Virus record (IMG/VR): IMGVR_UViG_2654587569_000008
Direction: 5' to 3' (one strand)
DNA from: a virus
Lineage: Duplodnaviria; Heunggongvirae; Uroviricota; Caudoviricetes
Length of the DNA: 11,201 bases
Shown: piece by piece, positions 1 to 11,201 of the stretch
How positions within the stretch are numbered: the stretch's first letter is position 1
How the letters are laid out: each line of letters begins with the position of its first letter
The notes under the pieces: generated by a model
What the model was told of the DNA's origin: nothing
What the model saw: the letters and a program-made list of their open reading frames with translations, nothing else
The model's database searches: none
Program-made: the position numbers and the translations under genes

Positions 1-1242
1 ATGGCACGAAAAACCACCCCACTAACCATTACGGAGATCAAAAACGCACGACCAGGGGAAAAGGAATACACCCTGCAAGATGGCGGAGGATTATTTCTTC
101 TGGTGAAGCCCTCCGGATCAAAAATATGGCGTTTTACGTACTACCGCCCGGCAGATAAAAAACGGACTATTATCAGCCTTGGATCGCTGAATGATGTTTC
201 CCTGTCTGATGCCAGAGAGCGACGGAATGAATACAGGTCACTAATAGCAAAGGGAACTGACCCACAGGACCATGAACGCCGGAAACGTGAAGCAGAGAGC
301 CGGAAAAAGGGCAACACGTTCGAAAAAGTTGCCTCGGACTGGTACGAGATGAAAAAAGGCCAGAATCTGGCTTACAACACGATTAAGGATATCTGGCGAT
401 CCCTGGAAAAATACGTATTCCCGTACATCGGAAACACGCCAATAGATACCCTCACCGCTCGCCGCTTTGTTGAGATACTCACACCCATTAAAGCACGCGG
501 CAACCTGGAAACTCTGAAACGCGTTTTACAACGCATCAATGAAGTGATGGATTTTGCTGCCAACAGTGGGCTGATTGACATCAACACCGCCGCGAACGTC
601 CGCAAGGCATTCCCTTCCCCCACTAAAAAGCATATGCCAACCATCCGACCGGAACAGCTACCGCAGCTAATGCACGATTTATCGGTCGCCAGCATAGAAC
701 GGCAAACCAGATTGCTAATCGAGTGGCAACTGCTGACCGTAGCACGCCCAGCCGAAGCAGCCGCCGCACGCTGGGAAGAAATAGATCTCGATGCCGAAAC
801 ATGGACGATTCCAGCCGGACGCATGAAGATGCGCCGTGACCATGTGATCCCCCTTTGCGGTCAGGCTATGGCTGTACTGGAAACCATGAAGCCAATCAGC
901 GCACACAGGGAACACGTTTTTCCCAGCCTTAAAAACCCGATGCTGCCAATGAGCAGCCAGACCGCTAACGCCGCATTGCGCCGGATGGGTTACGCTGGTG
1001 TGCTGGTGTCTCACGGATTACGCGCCATATTCAGCACAGCAGCGAACGAGGAAGGATTCGAGCCGGACGTAATCGAGGCCGCGCTCGCACACGTGGACAC
1101 GAACGAGGTAAGGCGAGCATATAACCGAAGTAACTACCTGGAAAAGCGCGTGGTGCTTATGCGCTGGTGGGGGGAATTTGTAGAGGCCGCAGCAACTGGA
1201 GTGACCATAGCCAGTGGTAAAAGGGGTATCCGTGCCGTGTAA
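1..1242 (+). CDS. int: Tyrosine recombinase/integrase, P4 / CP4-57 (IntA-like) family
   Basis: 413-aa ORF. N-terminal MARKT.PLT..EIK...YTL.DG.GL.L..K.SGSK.W.F.YYRP and C-terminal catalytic region (HVIPL...VSHGLRAI...R..YNRS.YL..R..LM..W) match the P4-type integrase family as recalled. Window starts on its ATG, so attL and the target tRNA/tmRNA would lie upstream, outside the window. Confidence 0.9.
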   Translation: MARKTTPLTITEIKNARPGEKEYTLQDGGGLFLLVKPSGSKIWRFTYYRPADKKRTIISLGSLNDVSLSDARERRNEYRSLIAKGTDPQDHERRKREAESRKKGNTFEKVASDWYEMKKGQNLAYNTIKDIWRSLEKYVFPYIGNTPIDTLTARRFVEILTPIKARGNLETLKRVLQRINEVMDFAANSGLIDINTAANVRKAFPSPTKKHMPTIRPEQLPQLMHDLSVASIERQTRLLIEWQLLTVARPAEAAAARWEEIDLDAETWTIPAGRMKMRRDHVIPLCGQAMAVLETMKPISAHREHVFPSLKNPMLPMSSQTANAALRRMGYAGVLVSHGLRAIFSTAANEEGFEPDVIEAALAHVDTNEVRRAYNRSNYLEKRVVLMRWWGEFVEAAATGVTIASGKRGIRAV

Positions 1243-1741: not shown

Positions 1742-1948
1742 GTGGAAGCAATCAGAAAAATACTTACCCGTCAGGAAGTAAAAAATATTCTGCGCATCAA
1801 GGCAGACAGTTCGCTACAGGACATGATCAACGCCGGAAAATTCCCGAAAGGCTTCAAAATCGGTCTGCGTCGTGTTGGCTGGTATGAAGATGAAGTGCTG
1901 GCCTGGCTGAAAGAGCGCGAGGAAGAAGCGCGCGGAACGGCTGCGTAA
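1742..1948 (+). CDS. alpA: AlpA-family (Phage_AlpA / MerR-like HTH) regulator or excisionase
   Basis: 68-aa ORF with GTG start and GAGG about 10 nt upstream. Sequence ...LTRQEVKNILRIKADSSLQDMINAGKFPKGFKIGLRRVGWYEDEVLAWLKERE fits the AlpA/Vis-type HTH pattern (FP...W...W). Position next to a P4-type int is typical. Confidence 0.8.
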   Translation: MEAIRKILTRQEVKNILRIKADSSLQDMINAGKFPKGFKIGLRRVGWYEDEVLAWLKEREEEARGTAA

Positions 1949-2724: not shown

Positions 2725-2816
2725 TTATCAAGGCGCATAAATGCAAAGCCCCGCAAGTGTCGTTACCACTCGCAGGGCTTCTAACCACCAACGATAGCAG
2801 AAGTATCGAGGTAGCT

Positions 2817-3023
2817 ATGAGAAATTATACCAGACACCCGCAAGGGCGGGACTCGCACAACCTGAATAAATACATCTGGCGTTTTATCGCCCTGAGCACG
2901 GCACAACCGCGCGTGATTACCATTGAGGCCACCAGCGAACAGGAAGCACGCCAGCAATCTCCTGATGGCTGCGTGATGGTATTCGCCGCCCGTATTCGTC
3001 AGGAGGTGCGCCATGTGCAATAA
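2817..3023 (+). CDS. Hypothetical protein (68 aa), possible first gene of the early operon
   Basis: ATG with GAGGT 5-6 nt upstream; its stop overlaps the next gene's start. It is the 3' part of a long, otherwise implausible plus-strand ORF, so confidence is low. Confidence 0.3.
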   Translation: MRNYTRHPQGRDSHNLNKYIWRFIALSTAQPRVITIEATSEQEARQQSPDGCVMVFAARIRQEVRHVQ

Positions 3024-3252
3024 CCCCCGTCCGGACGCAGCCGCCGAAGCTATCAGAACGCTGATGCACGCGCTGATTGATATTTCATGCACGGCAGCAA
3101 CCGCAGAAAAACACATTACCAGAGAGCCGGAATATACAGGGGCAATAATCCCGCATTCGCTGGCCTACGCACAGCTTACCGCTGATATGGCACTGAATGA
3201 GGCCAGGGCTATCCTGATTGCTGATTGTGAAAATGGGGGGGGTTATGCGTGA
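3013..3252 (+). CDS. Hypothetical protein (79 aa)
   Basis: Strong Shine-Dalgarno AGGAGGTG 5 nt upstream of the ATG. Stop overlaps the next start (ATGCGTGA). Confidence 0.55.
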   Translation: MCNNPRPDAAAEAIRTLMHALIDISCTAATAEKHITREPEYTGAIIPHSLAYAQLTADMALNEARAILIADCENGGGYA

Positions 3253-3478
3253 TGATCGTTTTAATGCCCTGAAACAGGAATTTGATGGCGCACCGGAACA
3301 CGAAGCAGACGCATTGTTGGGCGTTGCTGACATGATAAAAGCCGCATTTTTTCTTATCAATACCAGTGGCTACAGGTCAGAGGGTGCGGAGATTCTCAAT
3401 ATTGCGTCGGACTATGCGGAATATGTTGCAGAGGCGCGTTACAGAAGAAAATTCCCGGAGGTGGTGAGCCATGAATGA
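3245..3478 (+). CDS. Hypothetical protein (77 aa)
   Basis: ATG at 3245 preceded by a G-rich SD-like run; translationally coupled upstream and downstream (ATGAATGA overlap at 3471-3478). Confidence 0.5.
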   Translation: MRDDRFNALKQEFDGAPEHEADALLGVADMIKAAFFLINTSGYRSEGAEILNIASDYAEYVAEARYRRKFPEVVSHE

Positions 3479-3698
3479 AATCCCTTTCGATGTTCTTATT
3501 CATTCTGAAAACGCATTAATCCGCGCAAAGGAAATGGAGGCATTATTACTTAAGTTAATGGAAGTGCCGGAAAATGGCGATGAATCATATCCCATGATGT
3601 TTTCTGCCGTGCACACATTATTAACGCCAGTAATTAACGAATTAAATACGGTGATGGCAATTCACGAGAATAATAAAACGCATCACACCGGAGAATAA
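3471..3698 (+). CDS. Hypothetical protein (75 aa)
   Basis: GGAGGTGG 6-8 nt upstream; start overlaps the previous stop. Confidence 0.5.
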   Translation: MNEIPFDVLIHSENALIRAKEMEALLLKLMEVPENGDESYPMMFSAVHTLLTPVINELNTVMAIHENNKTHHTGE

Positions 3699-3703
3699 AA
3701 ACC

Positions 3704-4003
3704 ATGAAACAGAAAAATTCTGGCTTTACTGCCAGCGGCCTCTCTCGGCCTGAAATCCGCCCCGGCGATATTTTCAAAGATAAATACGGCGGCACTGTAA
3801 CGATTAAAAGCGTGGTGGGACGGTGTGTTACTTACCGCCGTGATGGGTACGGCTATGACTGCGTGATGCCTGTTTATCAGTTCCGGCGTGATTTTTCTCT
3901 GGTACAGAACGCAACACGCGGTAAGCCCACCAGCAGGGAAAAAGCACGGGAAAATATTAAGAAAATAAAAAGCATGCTCAGCGCATCCAGAGGTAAAAAA
4001 TGA
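3704..4003 (+). CDS. Hypothetical protein (99 aa), basic C-terminus
   Basis: GGAGAA upstream of the ATG; its stop overlaps the repA start (ATGA at 4000-4003). Confidence 0.55.
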   Translation: MKQKNSGFTASGLSRPEIRPGDIFKDKYGGTVTIKSVVGRCVTYRRDGYGYDCVMPVYQFRRDFSLVQNATRGKPTSREKARENIKKIKSMLSASRGKK

Positions 4004-5406
4004 AACTGGCACCGAACGTAAAACTGTTACCGAAAGATAAACACACTGAGGCGGTTATTTTTGCGGGTGATAATGCTCACTCCTTTGCAGAACATTACAT
4101 GATTGCACAGGCCAAAAAAGCAGGCGATCCCATCCCTCCGGTTTACCTGGGCCGTTATCAGTTAAGCGAACTGGACAATTTACAGATTGTTGATGAAGGA
4201 CGATACAGAGCAAAGGTCATACGCGCCGGAAACCTGGACGATATGCAGATGCTGACCATTGCCACCAAATTGGCGATCGCAGGTGTCCGGGAAGCGCGGT
4301 TACTTTCAGAGAATTTCGAACTACTGGAGGACTGGAGCGAGCAACTACCGCGGCTTAAAGAAACCTGGGAACGCGGGGAAAGTCTGGTCATGAATGGTGG
4401 AAAGCGAAAAATCACACTTCCCATCTCATGGGGTTCTGAGGGATTCGACGCGCAGCAAAGCTACGTAATTAAGGGGCTTATTCCGGCTGAATCATTATGC
4501 AGCACCTACGGGGCCAGCGGTTCTTATAAATCGTTCCTGGCTATTTCCTGGTCGTGTCATGTTGCCACAGGTATAGCATGGGGAGGCCGCAGGGTAAGTA
4601 AGGGCGCGGTTATTTATATCGCTGGCGAAGGCAGCATGGGCGTAAAACGCCGCGTTAAGGCGTGGGAGATAACCCACGACAAGGTGGTTACAGATTTGTG
4701 CATCATTAACGCGCCTGTTTTCCCTGCATCGCCTGACTATGTGGAGCAGGTTATCAGAACTGCCGGACTTGTTAAGAGCAGAACGGGCGAAAATGTGCGG
4801 CTGATTGTGATAGACACGCTGGCCCGTTGCTTTGGTGGGAATGATGAAAATGATTCCCGTGATATGGGCGCATTTATCCAGGGGTGTGACGCGATAAAGC
4901 AGGCCACAGGGGCCACGGTGCTGGTGGTTCACCATTCCGGCAAGGATGAAACAAAGGGGGCGCGTGGTTCCAGCGCATTCCGTGCCGCACTGGATGCAGA
5001 GTACCGAATCAGCCGGGAAAATTCAGACGTTACAGCACTGGTGGCGGCGTGTACGAAGATGAAGGACGCAGAGGAGCCAAAAGAAAGCGCATACGACCTT
5101 AAAAGCGTGGAGGTGTTTACCGATACAGATGGCGAAGAGATTGTGTCCATGGTGGTGATTGACGTTCCCCGCGCCCCTGCTGAACTGGAACGCATCGAGG
5201 AGGCCGGGAACAAGACGGAAAATCACACGGCTTTATGGGGTTGTATCCGATCACGTATACAGCATGGTGATAAATGCACGATCCCGCTGCTACGTGACGA
5301 CATGAAAAAGCTGGGATATGACACAAAACACCTTAAACGATGGTTAGCAAAACTGGAAAAAGACGGCGTGATTTGCGTCGATGGGGATGATGTTCACCCA
5401 CTGTAA
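4000..5406 (+). CDS. Replication initiator/helicase, RepA-like RecA-fold ATPase (AAA_25-like)
   Basis: 468 aa. Walker A-like GASGSYKS, Walker B-like LIVIDTLARCF, a VLVVHHSGKDE motif, and a basic C-terminal tail that could be a DNA-binding domain. No primase domain recognised. Followed immediately by an iteron array. Confidence 0.85.
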   Translation: MKLAPNVKLLPKDKHTEAVIFAGDNAHSFAEHYMIAQAKKAGDPIPPVYLGRYQLSELDNLQIVDEGRYRAKVIRAGNLDDMQMLTIATKLAIAGVREARLLSENFELLEDWSEQLPRLKETWERGESLVMNGGKRKITLPISWGSEGFDAQQSYVIKGLIPAESLCSTYGASGSYKSFLAISWSCHVATGIAWGGRRVSKGAVIYIAGEGSMGVKRRVKAWEITHDKVVTDLCIINAPVFPASPDYVEQVIRTAGLVKSRTGENVRLIVIDTLARCFGGNDENDSRDMGAFIQGCDAIKQATGATVLVVHHSGKDETKGARGSSAFRAALDAEYRISRENSDVTALVAACTKMKDAEEPKESAYDLKSVEVFTDTDGEEIVSMVVIDVPRAPAELERIEEAGNKTENHTALWGCIRSRIQHGDKCTIPLLRDDMKKLGYDTKHLKRWLAKLEKDGVICVDGDDVHPL

Positions 5407-5610
5407 AAAGTGGGCGTTAAAAGTGGGAATAGTGGGTAATTTAACCGAAATTTAACAAAATCGCCCACTTTCCCACGTGTATACATCCAAAAAAGTGGGC
5501 ACTAAAAAAATACTTATGAAACAGTACGATATAAAACCACAAAATCCCAGGTGGGACGAAGTGGGAAACCATGAAAAGTGGGCAGAAAAAGTGGGCACAG
5601 GTGGGCGCAT
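5404..5610. repeat. Iteron array, putative origin of replication
   Basis: Eleven copies of the GTGGG core within about 200 bp, mostly as AAAAGTGGGC(A): nine direct (5410, 5423, 5432, 5495, 5551, 5561, 5578, 5591, 5601) and two inverted CCCAC (5464, 5472), with A-rich spacers. Directly downstream of repA. Confidence 0.6.
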
Positions 5611-5860
5611 GACAAGAAAAACCAGAGATAAGACAGCACCAAAATATAAAGCGTTAGACATGACAGAGCACGCCTTAAAGGTGGCAATCAGAACGATAGA
5701 CCGCCACGCCGGGGAAGGATACGCGAAAGCACATCCCGAACTGATAAGCGCATTCATGACCACGACGGCGGCAAATTTTGCCACGCTGACAGAGCGGGAG
5801 ATTGCCGAAGCGGAACAGGTAACAACAATCAACGTTAAAACCGGAGAGGTGGAATCATGA
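5609..5860 (+). CDS. Hypothetical protein (83 aa from the ATG at 5609; ORF open from 5477)
   Basis: AGGTGG just upstream of the ATG at 5609; the longer version would be translated across the iterons. Stop overlaps the ssb start (ATGA). Confidence 0.4.
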   Translation: MTRKTRDKTAPKYKALDMTEHALKVAIRTIDRHAGEGYAKAHPELISAFMTTTAANFATLTEREIAEAEQVTTINVKTGEVES

Positions 5861-6279
5861 CAGCACAGATAGCGGCTTACGGGCGGCTGGTGGCTGACCC
5901 GCAGTTAAAGACCACCAGCAAAGGGACACAAATGGCGATGGCGAGTATGGCAGTTCCCCTGCCGTGCAGCCAGGCAGATGACGGAACGGCGACGATGTGG
6001 TTATCTGTCCGGGCGTTTGGCAGACAGGCCGACGCACTGGCAAAACACCACAAAGGCGAACTCCTGAGCGTGGCGGGTAACATGCAGGTGAGCCAGTGGA
6101 CAGGCCAGAACGGCGAAACGCGGCAGGGCTGGCAGGTTATCGCAGACAGTGTAATCAGTGCCAGAACGGCGCGACCGGGCGGCAAAAAAGGTCAACAGGG
6201 GCAGGCTACTGACGCACTGAACAGGGCAAAACAACAGGCGGGAAATGATGATCCGTACGGGGATAACATACCGTTTTAA
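5857..6279 (+). CDS. ssb: Single-stranded DNA-binding protein (SSB)
   Basis: 140 aa. OB-fold region aligns by eye with E. coli SSB (GRLVADPQL..., W..V..FG..A......KG......G.....W....G), and the C-terminus ends DDPYGDNIPF, matching the SSB acidic tip D-D-D-I-P-F. GGAGAGGTGG RBS. Confidence 0.8.
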   Translation: MTAQIAAYGRLVADPQLKTTSKGTQMAMASMAVPLPCSQADDGTATMWLSVRAFGRQADALAKHHKGELLSVAGNMQVSQWTGQNGETRQGWQVIADSVISARTARPGGKKGQQGQATDALNRAKQQAGNDDPYGDNIPF

Positions 6280-6295
6280 GCAACGAGTAACAGAG

Positions 6296-6317
6296 GCCGG
6301 AGCAATCCGGCTTTTAT
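6296..6317 (+). terminator. Rho-independent terminator ending the replication operon
   Basis: GCCGGA-(GCAA)-TCCGGC followed by TTTTAT, 17 nt after the ssb stop. Confidence 0.6.
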
Positions 6318-6552
6318 CAGTTGAGTCCGTCACACTACGCAAAAAAAAAGGCCGGAATATTCCGACCCCTTCATCACCAAAGAGAATAATTTATGTCTTT
6401 GAACTTGTAACGCTGTACAGAATGACACGTAACGCCGGATAAATAAACGAAGATTGAAACTTTGCACACTATTGCATAGCAATGCATAAAGATGCCAAAC
6501 AAGGCAGATGATAAAATTAACGCGACACTTTTACTAAGTATTAAGAGGTTAT

Positions 6553-7593
6553 ATGAGTGATTTATATTCGCCAGCCATGTTAATACAGGTTGTTAATGCC
6601 GAAGATATTCAATGGCAGATTAATTCTTTATTTATAAACCTGTTTTTTAAGCGAGTCGTTACATTTGAGACGCGGGATATTGCGCTTGATATTATTGACG
6701 ATCCAGACATCCCGATGGCTGCATTTTGTTCCCCTATGGTTGGTAGTAAAGTCTCACGCGATGAAGGCTACGAATCAAAAGTAATTCGCCCTGGCTATAT
6801 GAAGCCAAAAAGTAGTATCGACCCAAATAAAATAGCCGTTCGTCAACCAGGCGTATCACCTGAACAATTCAATGCATATTCATCACGCAGTTTCAAAATA
6901 AAGCGAGCGTTAGTAAGACAAGCGCAGGCAATTCGTGCGCGTATTGAGTGGCTTGCTGTTCAGGCGGTTACAACGGGGAAAAATATCATTGAAGGCGATG
7001 GAATTGAACGTTATGAACTGGACTGGAATATAAAACCACAAAATATTATCACGCAGTCCGGCGGCACGGAGTGGAGCGGTAGAGATTTATCAACATTTGA
7101 TCCAAACGATGACATCGAAGAGTACGCAGAAATCAGCGAAGGTACTACAAATATCATCGTAATGGGCCGCAACGTATGGAAAAAATACCGCGCCTTTAAA
7201 GCAGTAAAAGATTGCCTTGATACTCGACGGGGATCTAATTCCGTTCTTGAAACGGCCCTGAAAAATCTTGGGGATTCTGTAAGCTTCAAGGGTTACGTTG
7301 GCGATGTTGCTATTGTGGTATATAGCGGACGTTATACCGACGAGGACGGCAAAGAAAAATATTTCCTTGATCCTGATTTGATGGTGCTTGGCAACACATC
7401 ATTACAGGGCATCGTTGCCTACGGTGGCATTCAGGATCCTGAGTTAATCAGAATGGGGCTGACTAAAGCCGAACTTGCGCCGAAAAATTACATCGTACCA
7501 GGTGATCCGGCTATTGAATATGTGCAGACGCACAGCGCACCGCAACCAATACCGGCCCGCATCAATCGTTTTGTTACCGTTCGCATTGGTTAA
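6553..7593 (+). CDS. Major capsid protein, phage lambda gpE family
   Basis: 346 aa (lambda gpE is 341). Long blocks match gpE as recalled: NIITQSGGTEWS, KAVKDCLDTRRGSNSVLETA, GDVAIVVYSGRY, MVLGNT, PGYMKPK, PKNYIVPGDPA. AAGAGG RBS. Confidence 0.9.
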   Translation: MSDLYSPAMLIQVVNAEDIQWQINSLFINLFFKRVVTFETRDIALDIIDDPDIPMAAFCSPMVGSKVSRDEGYESKVIRPGYMKPKSSIDPNKIAVRQPGVSPEQFNAYSSRSFKIKRALVRQAQAIRARIEWLAVQAVTTGKNIIEGDGIERYELDWNIKPQNIITQSGGTEWSGRDLSTFDPNDDIEEYAEISEGTTNIIVMGRNVWKKYRAFKAVKDCLDTRRGSNSVLETALKNLGDSVSFKGYVGDVAIVVYSGRYTDEDGKEKYFLDPDLMVLGNTSLQGIVAYGGIQDPELIRMGLTKAELAPKNYIVPGDPAIEYVQTHSAPQPIPARINRFVTVRIG

Positions 7594-7602
7594 GGGGGAG
7601 CA

Positions 7603-7944
7603 ATGGCTACTCATTACACTGAACTCATGGCTGGCACTGAAGCACTGGTTACTACGTTGGGGATATTTTCAGCTAATAAAGGGGTAATTCCTGCATTTAC
7701 GCCACTGATGCAAGAAGATGCAACTGGTGCACTGGTGGTATGGGATGGAACGAGCGCAGGCAAAGCTGTTTATGTTTCCGCTGTACAAATCGATACAGCG
7801 ACAAAAACGCAGGCTCAGGTTTATAAAACCGGCGTCTTAAATGTTGATGCTCTGAACTGGCCTGAGTCTGTAACACAACTATCAGCAAAAGTTGCTGCGT
7901 TTGTTGGCTCAGGTATTTCTGTTCAGCCGCTGGCACGTGTGTGA
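7603..7944 (+). CDS. Head decoration protein, phage lambda gpD family
   Basis: 113 aa (gpD is 110). TPLMQEDATGALVVWDGTSAGKAV against gpD [24 protein letters not shown], and VYKTGVLNVDALNWPES against FYKSGTFRYEDVLWPEA. AAGGGGGAG RBS. Gene order is E then D, the reverse of lambda. Confidence 0.8.
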   Translation: MATHYTELMAGTEALVTTLGIFSANKGVIPAFTPLMQEDATGALVVWDGTSAGKAVYVSAVQIDTATKTQAQVYKTGVLNVDALNWPESVTQLSAKVAAFVGSGISVQPLARV

Positions 7945-7953
7945 GGTACGAGA

Positions 7954-8298
7954 ATGATTGAAAGAGATAGTCAGCTACGAGAGCTATTAGATATCGATGA
8001 CAAAATGAGTTTAAGCGAGCGCCTTGTTGATATGGATCAGGTAGTGGAGCTTACAACCCTTAGCCGTCGCACATTGCTAAACCTTGAGGCTCGCGGAGAG
8101 TTCCCCGAACGCGTACAGGTTACGAAAGGGCGCAAGGCATGGTATTTAAGCGAGGTTGTTGCGTGGATTAACAACATTCCGCGCGCATCAAATTATTGCC
8201 TTGTTCCCACCCCCGAAAAACCTGATGCGGCGTTATGCCTCAAGATTGAACGCGCCAGGCGTAATGCCCTGAAAGGACGCAATAAGTTGATTGGTTGA
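7954..8298 (+). CDS. Second AlpA-family HTH protein inside the late module
   Basis: 114 aa. VVELTTLSRRTLLNLEARGEFPERVQVTKGRKAWYLSEVVAWINN fits the AlpA/excisionase-type HTH. GAGG RBS. Confidence 0.7.
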   Translation: MIERDSQLRELLDIDDKMSLSERLVDMDQVVELTTLSRRTLLNLEARGEFPERVQVTKGRKAWYLSEVVAWINNIPRASNYCLVPTPEKPDAALCLKIERARRNALKGRNKLIG

Positions 8299-8319
8299 TG
8301 AAATTAGGGCCCGTTCTGG

Positions 8320-8400
8320 CTGGCGGGTCCTTTCCGGCGATCCGGCAGGCTACGGGGCGGCGACCTTGCGTATTTTCGCTATTTATGAGCCTTTTCGGGT
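8320..8400. other. Lambda-like cos site (cosQ, cosN, I2-like segment)
   Basis: GGGTCCTTTCCGGCGATCCGGCAGGCTACGGGGCGGCGACCTTGCGTATTTTCGCTATTTATGAGCCTTTTCGGG is nearly identical to the lambda/cosmid cos sequence as recalled. The 12-nt cohesive-end sequence GGGCGGCGACCT is at 8355-8366. Confidence 0.8.
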
Positions 8401-8499
8401 TGGTGGTGGTGGTTTTGTTTTTCGCTCTATCTCTATGAATAAAAAGGGAAAGATAACACCAACACACCAACCTGAAACCTTAACTAAGTGGGGATATTG

Positions 8500-9042
8500 A
8501 TGAAATCGCACCTGATGAACAAAAAAACTATGGCGCAAAGCTGCCGCGTAAGTGCGACAGCGTTCGACAAGTGGGGAGTAACTCCCGTTGAGCGTAAAGG
8601 CCGTGAGGCGTTTTATGATGTTGCTAGCGTGATAGACAATAGGGTTAACAATGCAATTAACCAGCTTACAAACGACAAAGGCGAGATTGATGATGATGAA
8701 CTTTTACGCGTAAGAATCAGATTAATGACGGCCCAGGCGGAAGCGCAGGAACTTAAAAACGAGCGCGAACGCGGCGAGGTGATTGATACAAAGTTTTGCA
8801 TCTACGCGATTTCAAAACTAGCGAGTCAGATTTCATCAATCATGGACAGCCTCCCGCTCACAATGCAAAGGCGCTTTCCCGATATAAGGCCGTATATGCT
8901 GGATGAACTAAAAAGGGAAATAGCCAAAGCATGTAACGCATGTGCAAGACTTGACGAAAACCTGCCACAGATACTGGCTGATTACCTGATGGAAACTACC
9001 GGAAACGCGCCTGAGAAGTTGCTACAGAACAAAGGCGAGTAA
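8500..9042 (+). CDS. Terminase small subunit, lambda Nu1 family
   Basis: About 180 aa from the ATG at 8500 (ORF listed from the GTG at 8488). C-terminal two-thirds align by eye with Nu1 (RLMTAQAEAQELKNERERGEVIDTKFCIYAISKLASQISSIMDSLPLTMQRRFPDI against Nu1 RLTRAQADAQELKNARDSAEVVETAFCTFVLSRIAGEIASILDGLPLSVQRRFPEL). N-terminal DNA-binding region is related but more diverged. About 135 bp downstream of cosN, as in lambda. Confidence 0.85.
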   Translation: MKSHLMNKKTMAQSCRVSATAFDKWGVTPVERKGREAFYDVASVIDNRVNNAINQLTNDKGEIDDDELLRVRIRLMTAQAEAQELKNERERGEVIDTKFCIYAISKLASQISSIMDSLPLTMQRRFPDIRPYMLDELKREIAKACNACARLDENLPQILADYLMETTGNAPEKLLQNKGE

Positions 9043-9115
9043 CCGCCGCCCCGTAACGGGCCATAATTCCAGGAAGGACCCGACGACACCAGGCTATCAG
9101 AACGATGAGGGCACA

Positions 9116-9397
9116 ATGACTGAAGCCGAACTACTGGGATTAATCCGCCGCGTCGTCGGAATCAGCCAGCAGCATGACGAACAGGCCACACAGCCGGACA
9201 GCGTGACCGCTGAAAATTATGTGCGTGTTGTTGCTGAGGTGATGCGCCGTGATGGTATTGAGCTTAACGGCGTGGATATGCGCAACATACGAACAAGAGT
9301 CCTTGAGTTGCTGGCATACCGTCGCCGTTCTCAACAACGGAGGGAGAGCGCGAAAAATACTTACCAGTGGAAGAAGCCGGAACGGTTGCGGCGGTAG
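9116..9397 (+). CDS. Hypothetical protein (93 aa)
   Basis: GAGGG 5 nt upstream of the ATG. Last gene of the late module; no recognisable family. Confidence 0.45.
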   Translation: MTEAELLGLIRRVVGISQQHDEQATQPDSVTAENYVRVVAEVMRRDGIELNGVDMRNIRTRVLELLAYRRRSQQRRESAKNTYQWKKPERLRR

Positions 9398-9534
9398 ATT
9401 CCTGATATTCAGGAAAACCACGAATCTGTGGGGTTTACTGGCGCGGTTACGGCGGTGACACGCACCGAGGCAGAACGATTACCGTAAGTTAAAGTGACGG
9501 TATTCACACCAAAGGCAGAAATCAGCGGTTAACG

Positions 9535-9705
9535 TAACTGACTGATATTTTCGGGAACAGCCAACGGCTGAGGCCGGAACAACCGACTATCTTTCAGATA
9601 GTCACAAACTACGAAATTTTCGCAGTTTAATTACTCGCCAGCTTAATCGCTAACCCACTGATATTTTCGGAAACCTCGATTTGAGGAGACCGGAACGTCT
9701 ACATA
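9535..9705. repeat. Two imperfect ~50-bp direct repeats with a structure-preserving variable hairpin
   Basis: Copy 1 at 9535-9590 and copy 2 at 9651-9705 share ACTGATATTTTCGG(G/A)AAC and AG(G/A)CCGGAAC. The segment between them differs in sequence but forms a hairpin in both (CAGCC-AAC-GGCTG against CCTC-GATTT-GAGG). Confidence 0.4.
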
Positions 9706-10115
9706 GCTGCATCACCGTAATGATGATTTGGCCCACCAGCAACCATAACGATTTCCGTTACAGTTGATGTGCTTTTTTGCTGGTAAGGAGTAACCTGTTG
9801 ATTGTTCCAGAATCCCCCATTGGGGAAAACTGGAAAACTCACCCTCCAGATTCTGAATGGTGAAAATGACCATTCAGCTTCATGTGTCCATTTTCCCGAA
9901 ACAGGAAAACCCGTTTTCGGGAGAAGGTGCGATTATGTTCGTCATACCTGTTCCGTTGAAACGGAATACCCCATTCCGGCGTAGCTGATGGACGCACAGC
10001 CACATACAACTAACTTTGCGCGTCAGTATTGCTGACCCGCAAACAACAACCAGGCAACAGAACGTTACCCGATTCAGCCGTTCGGTGGCATCACTGGACC
10101 CACTTTCCTGATGCG

Positions 10116-10271
10116 TTTGCGGGTTATTTGGGGGGTGTTTGCGGGTTATTTTGAATGTCTTGCGGGTTACGTTTTGGCTAACATTTAAACACACCATTTT
10201 CCAACACATTGATATTAAAGAATAAAAAATACTTAGCACGCGAAGATAACCCGCTAACCCGCATAACCCGC
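10116..10271. repeat. TGCGGGTTA repeat array: three direct and three inverted copies flanking an AT-rich core
   Basis: Direct copies at about 10116, 10138 and 10158 (roughly 21-22 bp apart). Contiguous inverted copies GATAACCCGC / TAACCCGC / ATAACCCGC at 10245-10271. About 75 bp of AT-rich DNA between the clusters. Confidence 0.5.
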
Positions 10272-10383
10272 ACTGTTTTGTATATATATACGAAAAATTG
10301 CATTCAGGAGGGGGGATCGGAATCCCTACACCCCATTGCTTATGGAACCGCCCGCCCCGTCAAATTTTTACATCCGCGAAATT

Positions 10384-10412
10384 AAAAAAATGCGTCACGC
10401 AGGTGGGCGTGA
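10384..10412 (-). terminator. Rho-independent terminator (minus strand)
   Basis: Stem TCACGC-(AGGTGG)-GCGTGA; on the minus strand it is followed by the complement of AAAAAAA (10384-10390). A perfect 8-bp palindrome CGATACCG-GGATCT-CGGTATCG sits next to it at 10415-10436. Confidence 0.45.
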
Positions 10413-10627
10413 TGTCGATACCGGGATCTCGGTATCGGTTTATCCGTGATCATCCACCAGCTTGATAACGGATAACAGGGAGTCATAACAGTTAAAATTG
10501 TATACTTTTGCAGCAAACATTTTTAGCTACACGTTAAGCTATACGATTTTTGACTTACAAATTTCAACCTTAATTAAATCAAGTAGTTATTGGTGTGTTT
10601 TGAATACTCTCGTGAAAATCCCAAGAA

Positions 10628-10656
10628 AACCAACCTATTGCGGTTGGTTTTTTTAT
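10628..10656. terminator. Bidirectional intrinsic terminator
   Basis: Perfect 8-bp stem AACCAACC-(TATTGC)-GGTTGGTT with TTTTTTT on the plus side and an A-run (T-run on minus) on the other. Lies about 60 nt beyond the stop of the minus-strand gene at 10716. Confidence 0.6.
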
Positions 10657-10715
10657 ATCTGCATTTAATTCGATAAACAGACCGCGACACATCACGGCCT
10701 GTTTATTTTCTGTTA

Positions 10716-11201
10716 TCAGAACGTCCAGACTACACCCGCCTGAGTTGTGCTGCTTTCTTCACAGGAGAAACGACTATCGATACCGAGCGTCAGGCCCGTC
10801 AATGTTTGCTCAAAGCCAGCTCCCGCATCAGTGTTCACGCTGTTGCGGCTGTTAATTGCCGAACTCCACATCGCCGTATCGTAATTAACGCCTTTTACGC
10901 TACCAAGACGCCCACGCACGGTGTCCAGTTCTGCATCAAATACCAGCGGTTGTGCTGCCGCCATATTCAGCACATCCGTGGTTGAAGGGGGCATTTGTAC
11001 GCGATTCTCTGCGAGACTCCAGCTATGGTTGCCATTATCCAGCAAGGTATATTCATACGTACTGATATCAACAACGCTTCCGGCATTGCCCAACGTAAAT
11101 GCCGCATCACCGCGCCCTCCTTTAATCGTGGGATCATTCGCCGCGCCATAAACCTGTAGCACTCCATTATTGATCGTAGTCTGATTTACCGCGCCACCCA
11201 T
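10716..11201 (-). CDS. 3' part of a gene running off the window: autotransporter-like passenger/junction fragment, apparently without the beta-barrel
   Basis: N-terminus lies beyond 11201. Passenger-like repeats (TINNGVLQVYGAAN...), a junction-like motif (TVRGRLGSV...AMWSS...GAGFEQTLTGLTLGIDSRF), then a stop after ...GVVWTF, only about 20 residues into what would be a ~250-aa barrel. Family assignment is pattern-based and tentative. Confidence 0.45.
   Translation of the reverse strand: MGGAVNQTTINNGVLQVYGAANDPTIKGGRGDAAFTLGNAGSVVDISTYEYTLLDNGNHSWSLAENRVQMPPSTTDVLNMAAAQPLVFDAELDTVRGRLGSVKGVNYDTAMWSSAINSRNSVNTDAGAGFEQTLTGLTLGIDSRFSCEESSTTQAGVVWTF

Follow-up and report, generated by a model that had tools for sequence, protein, structure and literature searches.

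The DNA analysed here is an 11,201-nucleotide stretch (the window) of a virus record assigned to the Caudoviricetes (IMG/VR record IMGVR_UViG_2654587569_000008), and our attention was on the late module at positions 6553-9042. We identify the element in the window as a classical phage-inducible chromosomal island (PICI) of Gram-negative bacteria, a member of the EcCICFT073/EcCIIHE3034 family (Fillol-Salom 2018, 2019; PMC6092414, PMC6739421). The island probably directs its own packaging with a full-length small terminase (TerS) and its own cosB site, travels as a concatemer in heads of helper size, and contributes a major capsid protein (MCP) and a decoration protein (Dec) as an accessory pair. 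The original prediction had read the module as a satellite of lambda-type cos phages that builds a smaller head from its own shell and decoration proteins on the portal, protease/scaffold, large terminase (TerL) and tail of a lambdoid helper. The components that it named are all present between 6553 and 9042 (a gpE-like capsid protein, a gpD-like decoration protein, an AlpA-like gene, cos and a Nu1-like TerS). Its description of an element of about 10 kb that has int, alpA, repA, ssb and small open reading frames (ORFs) and is without other head or tail genes was also borne out by Pfam and tblastn. What it missed is that the family is already described, the window being one more ordinary copy of it, and that the Nu1-like gene is a complete TerS and not the Rpp of the model island EcCICFT073.

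The sequence features by which classical PICIs are recognized were all found: int at the left end, AlpA downstream of it, a replication gene of its own with an origin on the 3' side, a length in the range of about 10-15 kb with att sites, and no further structural or lysis genes. The functional features of such islands, namely induction and packaging that depend on a helper phage, transfer at high frequency and interference, are known from EcCICFT073 only. All assigned genes are on the + strand. According to the ORF list and Pfam, the remainder of the island outside the late module consists of int, alpA, a DUF4222 gene, RepA/AAA_25, ssb and small ORFs. Homologues of lambda A, W, B, C, FI and FII were not detected in the window by tblastn (E > 0.3), and genes for portal, protease, TerL, HNH and head-tail connectors were absent from it in both Pfam and tblastn searches. 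The closest complete genome is that of enterotoxigenic Escherichia coli TW11681 (locus L001). There the element is flanked by tRNA-Pro on one side and by yejO, narP and ccm genes on the other, and the neighbourhood is free of genes for phage heads or tails. The integrase of the window has 100% amino acid identity to that of the TW11681 island, which adjoins tRNA-Pro. The window begins at the int ATG, with attL about 90 bp upstream and beyond it, and attR sets the length of the element at about 10.6 kb. The island is inserted at a 26-bp site between tRNA-Pro (proL) and yejO.

These observations bear on whether the region could instead be a decaying fragment of a lambda-like head module. Three of its genes and its cos site are homologous to lambda, as such a fragment would have. 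However, the gene order is E then D, the reverse of lambda (D 5747-6079, E 6135-7160; locus L003), and an AlpA-like gene is interposed before cos; the original prediction was right on both counts. Neither the window nor the surroundings of its closest relative contain the contiguous Nu1-A-W-B-C-D-E head genes and tail genes of a lambda-like prophage, and the surroundings of the islands in WP9 and O157 are likewise without other structural genes of phages. Further arguments against decay are the att repeats, the intact int, alpA and replicon with its origin iterons, the recurrence of the identical architecture in six further genera and at a number of unrelated sites, ratios of nonsynonymous to synonymous substitution (dN/dS) of about 0.1, and a capsid clade apart from all phage gpE. 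We therefore give a prophage remnant almost no credence, and the earlier view of the element as a lambda-type cos satellite stands.

The gene that follows cos encodes a small terminase of the Nu1 type over its whole length. The Phage_Nu1 profile is covered at positions 35-162 of 164, the protein matches the PHROG family 'terminase small subunit' at 5.6e-53, and BLAST aligns it to lambda Nu1 with 37% identity over residues 3-180 of 181, including the C-terminal segment. The closest phage relative is N15 gp1 (48% identical), and the TerS of EcCIIHE3034 (180 aa) is 87% identical. We considered whether this protein might be an Rpp, a group of proteins of 144-153 aa (RppA, RppB, RppC) which the authors of the Rpp study suggested had evolved from TerS (Fillol-Salom 2019). 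This identity was rejected on the full-length Nu1 alignment and on a lack of similarity to RppA and RppC: BLAST gave no alignment with RppA, and a search of the PDB did not return RppC (6HLK), which RppA used as a control matched at 5e-31. The same PDB sequence search with TerS gave no match at all, not even to the N-terminal domain of lambda Nu1.

The site on which such a terminase would act lies between the AlpA-like gene and the terminase gene. A 24-nt cosN pattern has one match in the window and none in 200 shuffles. The cosQ and cosN elements and the left flank are near-invariant among the islands, the CFT073 helper prophage and lambda (alignment A1 with lambda and IHE3034 added). The adjoining cosB is an imperfect palindrome (dyad strength z = -4.8) that is common to four TerS-type islands only and is unrelated to the Rpp-type cos1 of EcCICFT073, to the prophage cosB and to lambda cosB. 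Matches to the integration host factor (IHF) consensus were at chance level (15 found versus 11.6 expected), and none lay inside cosB. The arms of the palindrome are candidate TerS binding sites. Across the island sequences TerS covaries with cosB, and we infer from the sequences that TerS makes contact both with cosB and with TerL.

Several observations were made on the cos region in passing. The cos1 site of EcCICFT073 (L002 2598-2625) contains CACCACCACCAC, the reverse complement of the run GGTGGTGGTGG in the cosB of the window (8398-8415), and the recognition sites of Rpp-type and TerS-type islands may share a core motif in opposite orientation. In EcCICFT073 (L002 3299) and the O157 island (L005 11873) a second, inverted cosN core is found between Rpp or TerS and the gene for a 93-aa protein. 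No second cos site was found in the window, nor in the islands of TW11681 and WP9, and all three have only 73 bp at that slot (window 9043-9115). An ORF at 8291-8500 (69 codons; a RefSeq hypothetical protein in relatives, e.g. L004 11338-11547) is probably not a gene, since it lies across cosQ, cosN and cosB and matched no family. An Rfam scan of the whole window gave only sub-threshold matches of the miRNA type at 8393-8477, caused by the cosB palindrome.

These parts suggest the following cycle. A lambdoid cos helper phage would switch on AlpA, to which we assign the role of PICI activator by analogy with EcCICFT073 (PMC6092414). The island would then excise by its own integrase and replicate from its AAAGTGGGC iteron origin with the RepA helicase and single-strand DNA-binding protein (SSB); the parts are present in the window and their activity is presumed. 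Expression of the co-oriented late module would follow. The full-length TerS would bind the dyad-symmetric, island-specific cosB and, by way of its Nu1-like C-terminal segment, recruit the large terminase of the helper, so that the DNA would be cut at a cosN identical to that of lambda. In lambda, the C-terminal segment of Nu1 contacts gpA. Packaging would continue down the concatemer and stop once a T=7 head of helper size had been filled, which would take about four copies of 10.6 kb (~42 kb) and not a single copy in a small head, as the phage-sized DNA obtained with EcCICFT073 suggests. Lambda packaging rules admit about 42 kb. Because four copies fall within these limits, the premise that a cos element of about 10 kb is unfit for a T=7 head, from which the original prediction started, is unsound; concatemer packaging solves the size problem. 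The most economical reading of the sequences is that TerS and its own cosB would form the cos-phage counterpart of the SaPI (Staphylococcus aureus pathogenicity island) TerS-S strategy, an alternative to Rpp.

The role of the two shell genes is a separate question. Both are convincing as genes: the MCP scores 142.2 bits against Phage_cap_E (cutoff 22.9) and the Dec 60.2 against HDPD (cutoff 29.1), and both have good ribosome-binding sites (AAGAGG for the MCP). Alignment to the lambda proteins, which the original prediction had proposed as a check, gave 43% identity to gpE over 336 aa by BLAST and 41% identity to gpD over 78 aa, the latter from residue 30 on, with the first ~30 residues of Dec not alignable. 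An AlphaFold (AF2) model of the MCP (predicted local distance difference test, pLDDT, 82; predicted template-modelling score, pTM, 0.83) superimposes on 3BQW with a template-modelling (TM) score of 0.94 at 1.9 Å and on lambda gpE (7SJ5) with TM 0.91 at 2.1 Å. Entry 3BQW is the crystal structure of a CFT073 'prophage' capsid protein, that is, of the EcCICFT073 homologue. Between the satellite and phage capsid clades there are 12 fixed substitutions and only indels of 1-3 residues, with divergence concentrated at residues 41-60, 121-160 and 321-340. The proposed inspection of curvature-setting regions thus returned a fold near-identical to gpE: no added or lost domain was seen in the prediction, and nothing in the clade substitutions, indels or fold comparison was readable as a determinant of size.

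We then compared the pair across islands and phages. In a large protein database, the MCP homologues from Escherichia, Cedecea, Scandinavium, Serratia, Edwardsiella, Salmonella and Lelliottia make up one group with identities of 51-98%, and an abrupt drop in score separates it from the capsid proteins of lambda-type phages at ~40-43%. A neighbour-joining tree places 51 sequences, including the MCPs of the window and of CFT073, in one clade without lambda gpE or any phage-type sequence. Capsid and decoration alleles diverge together across islands, and TerS/Rpp and c1501/helix-turn-helix (HTH) genes recombine independently. Between the window and TW11681 (dS 1.23 for the capsid gene), dN/dS is 0.09 for capsid and 0.056 for decoration; between CFT073 and O157 it is 0.13-0.15 for the two genes, and for TerS it is 0.15-0.17 in several pairs. 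By these estimates all late genes are under purifying selection, the shell genes with dN/dS of about 0.06-0.16. Together, the comparisons mark the MCP and Dec as a functional, mutually adapted, satellite-only pair maintained by purifying selection. Most likely, the two enter capsids together as an accessory contribution and neither set the size of the head nor are needed for transfer in the laboratory.

That last statement draws on published experiments. The small-head hypothesis was stated and tested in 2018 on EcCICFT073 (PMC6092414). In lysates of lambda and this island the virion DNA was all phage-sized, 'ruling out' size redirection, and islands lacking c1499 (capsid) or c1500 (decoration) still blocked lambda and transferred at 3.8e3 and 8.7e3, respectively, versus 8e3 for the wild type. 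Replacement of c1499 by cat left the island able to transfer with each of lambda, phi80 and the resident helper, and 'no phenotype' was reported for the gene (PMC6092414). In later papers such islands are described as filling full-size heads with concatemers of roughly three copies. Of 29 reference PICIs, 21 have capsid genes, and transfer does not depend on them (PMC10111431). No later literature that assigns a function to PICI capsid or decoration genes was found. For the relative EcCICFT073, then, the claim that the island builds its own smaller head is not supported, and the capsid protein is essentially dispensable there, with heads of normal size.

A smaller head would nevertheless have a rationale in the window. 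Under this proposal the MCP and Dec of the island, assembled on helper portal, scaffold and protease, would give a head that holds 1-2 copies and excludes the helper genome, in the manner of Ccm of SaPIbov5, which sets the precedent (PMC8569155). A satellite-specific, co-adapted pair under strong purifying selection would be expected on this view, and the N-terminus of Dec and the regions of the MCP that are probably the N-arm and E-loop diverge from lambda in a clade-specific way, which suggests mutual rather than helper recognition. The published tests involve other alleles and Rpp-type islands. On the other side are the phage-sized DNA of the closest studied relative, the lack of effect of its capsid and decoration deletions on transfer or interference, the treatment of such islands in the field as concatemer-packaged in large heads, a predicted fold that lies on gpE at TM 0.91 with 1-3 residue indels and no extra domain, and the failure of the motivating size argument for concatemeric cos substrates. 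We regard a small head as unlikely, and keep it at this low level because of PmCI172, a Pasteurella PICI with a capsid homologue that makes small capsids (PMC6092414). Equally doubtful is the broader proposal that, with a natural lambdoid helper, the island forms a shell of its own on helper portal, scaffold and protease, either smaller than T=7 or as a satellite-private T=7 lattice, and that lambda and phi80 as laboratory helpers fail to bring this out.

Besides PmCI172, other points weigh against a merely accessory pair in concatemer-filled heads. A 'dispensable' pair is hard to square with the strong purifying selection on MCP and Dec, and the laboratory helpers (lambda, phi80 and CFT073 phage 4) may fail to reveal a function of capsid and decoration. 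The published capsid tests cover the c1499 allele, which is 55% identical to the MCP of the window, in an Rpp-type island. The TerS-type islands of IHE3034 and 18098 were barely mobilized by resident prophages in 2018 (PMC6092414), and no published helper or mechanism for TerS-type E. coli PICIs was found in the literature. The contacts of TerS with TerL and cosB are drawn from homology and covariation only.

The lack of a transfer phenotype for genes under selection would also be accounted for if they acted on competitors. The MCP and Dec might co-assemble with, or poison, the capsid lattice of certain non-laboratory lambdoid phages and so cut the yield of the helper or a competitor. Several redundant interference mechanisms are common in satellites, and the MCP clade is distinct from helper gpE. 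However, deletion of c1499 or c1500 did not relieve interference with lambda, interference mapped to rpp in the 2019 study, and a decoration protein is hard to explain by pure poisoning. We see little chance that this is what the pair does.

We also asked how widely, and in which settings, the module occurs. The original prediction had called for a search for the same arrangement in other genomes, and it was found: a collinear capsid-then-decoration match is present in 1,084 of 5,426 complete E. coli genomes (about 20%), and the HTH-cos-TerS block in 1,025 of them. At least 1,000 public contigs encode precisely the capsid protein of the window, and 256 encode precisely its TerS; these proteins are already present in RefSeq. 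Strain M7424 has capsid and decoration genes 100% identical to those of the window, and strain WP9-S17-ESBL-11, with its island at cspD/clpS, has an HTH-cos-TerS block that is 99.8% identical. A scan of genome contigs with peptide patterns from the MCP alignment returned 3 loci only, the patterns being narrow. All 12 contexts examined in the clade were satellites: six from E. coli (the window, TW11681, WP9, O157, CFT073 and IHE3034) and one each from Superficieibacter, Kluyvera, Kosakonia, Serratia, Edwardsiella and Salmonella. The same late module is found at three chromosomal sites in E. coli and inside genes of lambda-like prophages in other genera. Family members combine two capsid/decoration allele groups, c1501 or the AlpA-like gene, and Rpp or TerS, so that the family appears to shuffle modules, the window being one such combination.

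The insertions into prophages are relevant to a further explanation. A module of the window type lies inside gene E of a lambda-like prophage in Kosakonia sp. S29 (L009 2659-14519) and inside the portal gene of another in Edwardsiella tarda (L015 765-12681). Both are helper-embedded PICIs of the kind already published (PMC10111431), and their nesting is independent evidence that the module goes with lambda-type helpers. Islands that insert in late genes of a helper, most often E, might bring an E homologue of their own to keep heads forming for as long as the helper's copies are disrupted, and E is the commonest target and capsid the commonest late gene in these PICIs (PMC10111431). A possible hybrid of lambda E and a PICI capsid gene would fit as well. 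On the other hand, the island of the window and most E. coli copies are inserted in the chromosome without disrupting any helper gene, and the pair is also present in islands that are nested in a gene other than E. Complementation of this kind therefore seems to us rather improbable as the reason for the pair, about as much so as action on competitors.

The hybrid gene is on a metagenomic scaffold (L013; ENA ERZ28600228 scaffold_2787, 4432 nt) at 2801-3829. Over its first ~235 residues the product (P0046) has the sequence of lambda gpE, and over the last ~110 that of the TW11681-type PICI capsid protein, with the switch within a 17-nt stretch common to both parents (CTGGATACCCGTCGTGG). The order on the scaffold is a lambda-like partial portal gene (portal'), C, D and hybrid E, then PICI Dec and the AlpA-like gene. 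With identities of 97.5% and 93.9% to the references, the two halves are not what a spike of laboratory lambda would give. It is either a real recombinant of helper and satellite or a chimera of metagenome assembly.

Two other observations concern capsid homologues. Proteins P0002 (463 aa, from a Logan assembly) and P0064 (470 aa) are single-contig calls in which Phage_cap_E and HDPD are fused in one protein; the fusions may be real, or they may reflect read-through or a sequencing error in the 9 nt between the two genes. The 19.8-kb 'phage' records vB_EcoM-569R10, which were the top MCP matches, were considered as satellites and rejected, since they are ordinary partial phages with D-then-E order, TerL, portal and protease.

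The AlpA-like gene, the second of its type in the window, takes the slot that c1501 has in the CFT073, O157 and IHE3034 islands, and BLAST comparison showed no similarity between the two products. The c1501 protein (L002 2084-2497, 137 aa) matches the C-terminal part of PHROG 53 'head maturation protease' (positions 495-567 of 583, 1e-8), which hints at a scaffold-like domain. It had no Pfam match and no BLAST similarity to lambda gpC/Nu3.

Features of the island and their coordinates are given in Table 1.

Table 1. Features of the island in the 11,201-nt window, with the evidence for each.
Feature	Coordinates	Strand	Evidence
Tyrosine integrase	1..1242	+	Pfam Phage_integrase 9e-27, Arm-DNA-bind_3, Phage_int_M
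AlpA regulator	1742..1948	+	Pfam Phage_AlpA 4.5e-8
DUF4222 protein	3704..4003	+	Pfam DUF4222 5.6e-24
RepA-type replicative helicase (AAA_25)	4000..5406	+	Pfam AAA_25 3.6e-42; relatives annotated 'helicase RepA family protein'
Putative replication origin	5405..5600		At least 7 copies of iteron AAAGTGGGC, both orientations, directly 3' of repA (repeat search)
Single-strand DNA-binding protein (ssb)	5857..6279	+	Pfam SSB 6.9e-16
Major capsid protein, gpE/HK97 fold, 346 aa	6553..7593	+	Pfam Phage_cap_E 2.7e-41
gpD-like head decoration protein, 113 aa	7603..7944	+	Pfam HDPD 2.6e-16
Second AlpA/excisionase-type winged-HTH protein, 114 aa	7954..8298	+	Pfam Phage_AlpA 8.7e-8; PDB 8C3T 5e-10; phrog_2790 1.3e-37
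cosQ-like element and cosN	8320..8380	+	GGGTCCT at 8325-8331; cohesive-end 12-mer GGGCGGCGACCT at 8355-8366; both invariant over the PICI and prophage cos sites of alignment A1 and matching lambda
Island-specific cosB	8393..8477		~85-bp imperfect palindrome, arms TTTCGGGTTGGTG / CACCAACCTGAAA
Full-length Nu1-type small terminase, 180 aa	8500..9042 (or GTG 8488)	+	Pfam Phage_Nu1 9.3e-24
Conserved 93-aa protein	9116..9397	+	78% identical to CFT073 homologue; phrog_1561 1.2e-56
Right arm, ORF-poor	9398..10519		No Pfam/Rfam match; variable versus TW11681
attR, 26-bp direct repeat of attL core	10520..10545	+	blastn-short 96% over 26 nt to L001 3910-3935; recurs at L001 14291-14316

The DUF4222 gene is also directly upstream of the replication gene in related islands (L001, L004, L005, L012), and it gave the sole Pfam match among nine small ORFs and the ORF-poor right arm. 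An origin directly 3' of the rep gene is the position described for PICIs (PMC6092414), and the iterons of the window match it. In the otherwise near-identical island of WP9-S17-ESBL-11, ssb (L004 8904-9326) has an internal stop and capsid, decoration and TerS are intact. The late module ends with the 93-aa gene in TerS-type and Rpp-type islands alike. The 1.1 kb that precedes attR yielded no convincing ORF or RNA with Pfam and Rfam; some relatives have PerC or Panacea-domain genes at this position, and the right arm looks like an empty accessory or hot-spot slot. A scan of 5400-10700 for promoters and terminators gave fewer promoter-like sites than shuffled sequence. The flanking yejO autotransporter gene (10716-11201, - strand; region 10395-11201) is degraded, its frame stopping after ~45 beta-barrel residues, and relative to TW11681 it has internal deletions of ~630 bp and 1.15 kb.

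Two features of these islands seem to us worth pursuing. The capsid/decoration pair is satellite-only over at least seven enterobacterial genera and under selection as strong as that on the terminase, yet published experiments show no phenotype for it. The TerS-type islands, in which a complete Nu1 homologue goes with a palindromic cosB to match, would represent a packaging solution other than the characterized Rpp mechanism. Resolving either the benefit of the shell genes or the mobilization of TerS-type islands would refine our picture of competition between cos satellites and lambdoid phages, which include Stx-converting and other medically relevant ones.

As a comparison, the model island EcCICFT073 has the same int-alpA-rep-ori-(ssb) backbone and a late module of MCP, Dec, a variable gene, cos, a packaging protein and the 93-aa gene, together with lambda-type cosQ and cosN and no portal, TerL, protease or tail genes. 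Its right end (L002) reads capsid, decoration, c1501, cos1, RppA, cos2 and the 93-aa gene, then phoQ. Its MCP (c1499) is 55%, its Dec (c1500) 54% and its 93-aa protein 78% identical to those of the window. It differs in having RppA (144 aa), which hijacks the TerS of the helper, whereas the window has a 180-aa Nu1-type TerS of its own. It also has c1501, two cos sites, another cosB and a roxA/phoQ insertion site, compared with the AlpA-like HTH gene, one cos and the proL/yejO site of the window. TerS-encoding islands in IHE3034 and 18098 were mentioned in the same study (PMC6092414). EcCIIHE3034 (L012) and the O157:H7 island at roxA/phoQ (L005) share with the window a Nu1-type TerS, the cosB palindrome, the 93-aa gene and an MCP/Dec pair, but have MCP and Dec alleles of the CFT073 type (351/111 aa) and c1501 where the window has alleles of 346/113 aa and the AlpA-like gene.

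Among other satellites, SaPIbov5 (Carpena 2016; Hawkins 2021) is also a cos satellite with a homologue of the major capsid protein of its helper. Its Ccm occupies the pentamers, and prolate phi12 heads are replaced by small T=4 isometric heads (PMC8569155). It has no sequence relationship to the window and is without a decoration gene and TerS. The capsid-forming PICIs (EcCIEDL933; Alqurainy 2023) resemble the window in their int, alpA and rep backbone, capsid gene and TerS, but they also encode portal, protease, TerL, HNH and connectors and build small heads of their own, genes that the window is without. If the window did form its own shell, it would stand midway between the classical PICIs, which take over complete heads, and the capsid-forming PICIs, which take tails alone, and the possible L013 hybrid would mark a real structural interchange between helper and satellite shells. 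The helper-embedded PICIs (11capE; PMC10111431) belong to the same satellite family and have the late module; the island in the window is instead chromosomal, beside tRNA-Pro. Lambda itself offers the parallel of a small terminase with an N-terminal winged HTH that reads a site beside cosN and hands the DNA to TerL. Lambda cosB is built as R3-I1-R2-R1, whereas that of the window is a single long palindrome without a canonical IHF site. The pac SaPIs likewise substitute a TerS of their own; in the window the satellite-encoded TerS is within a cos system.

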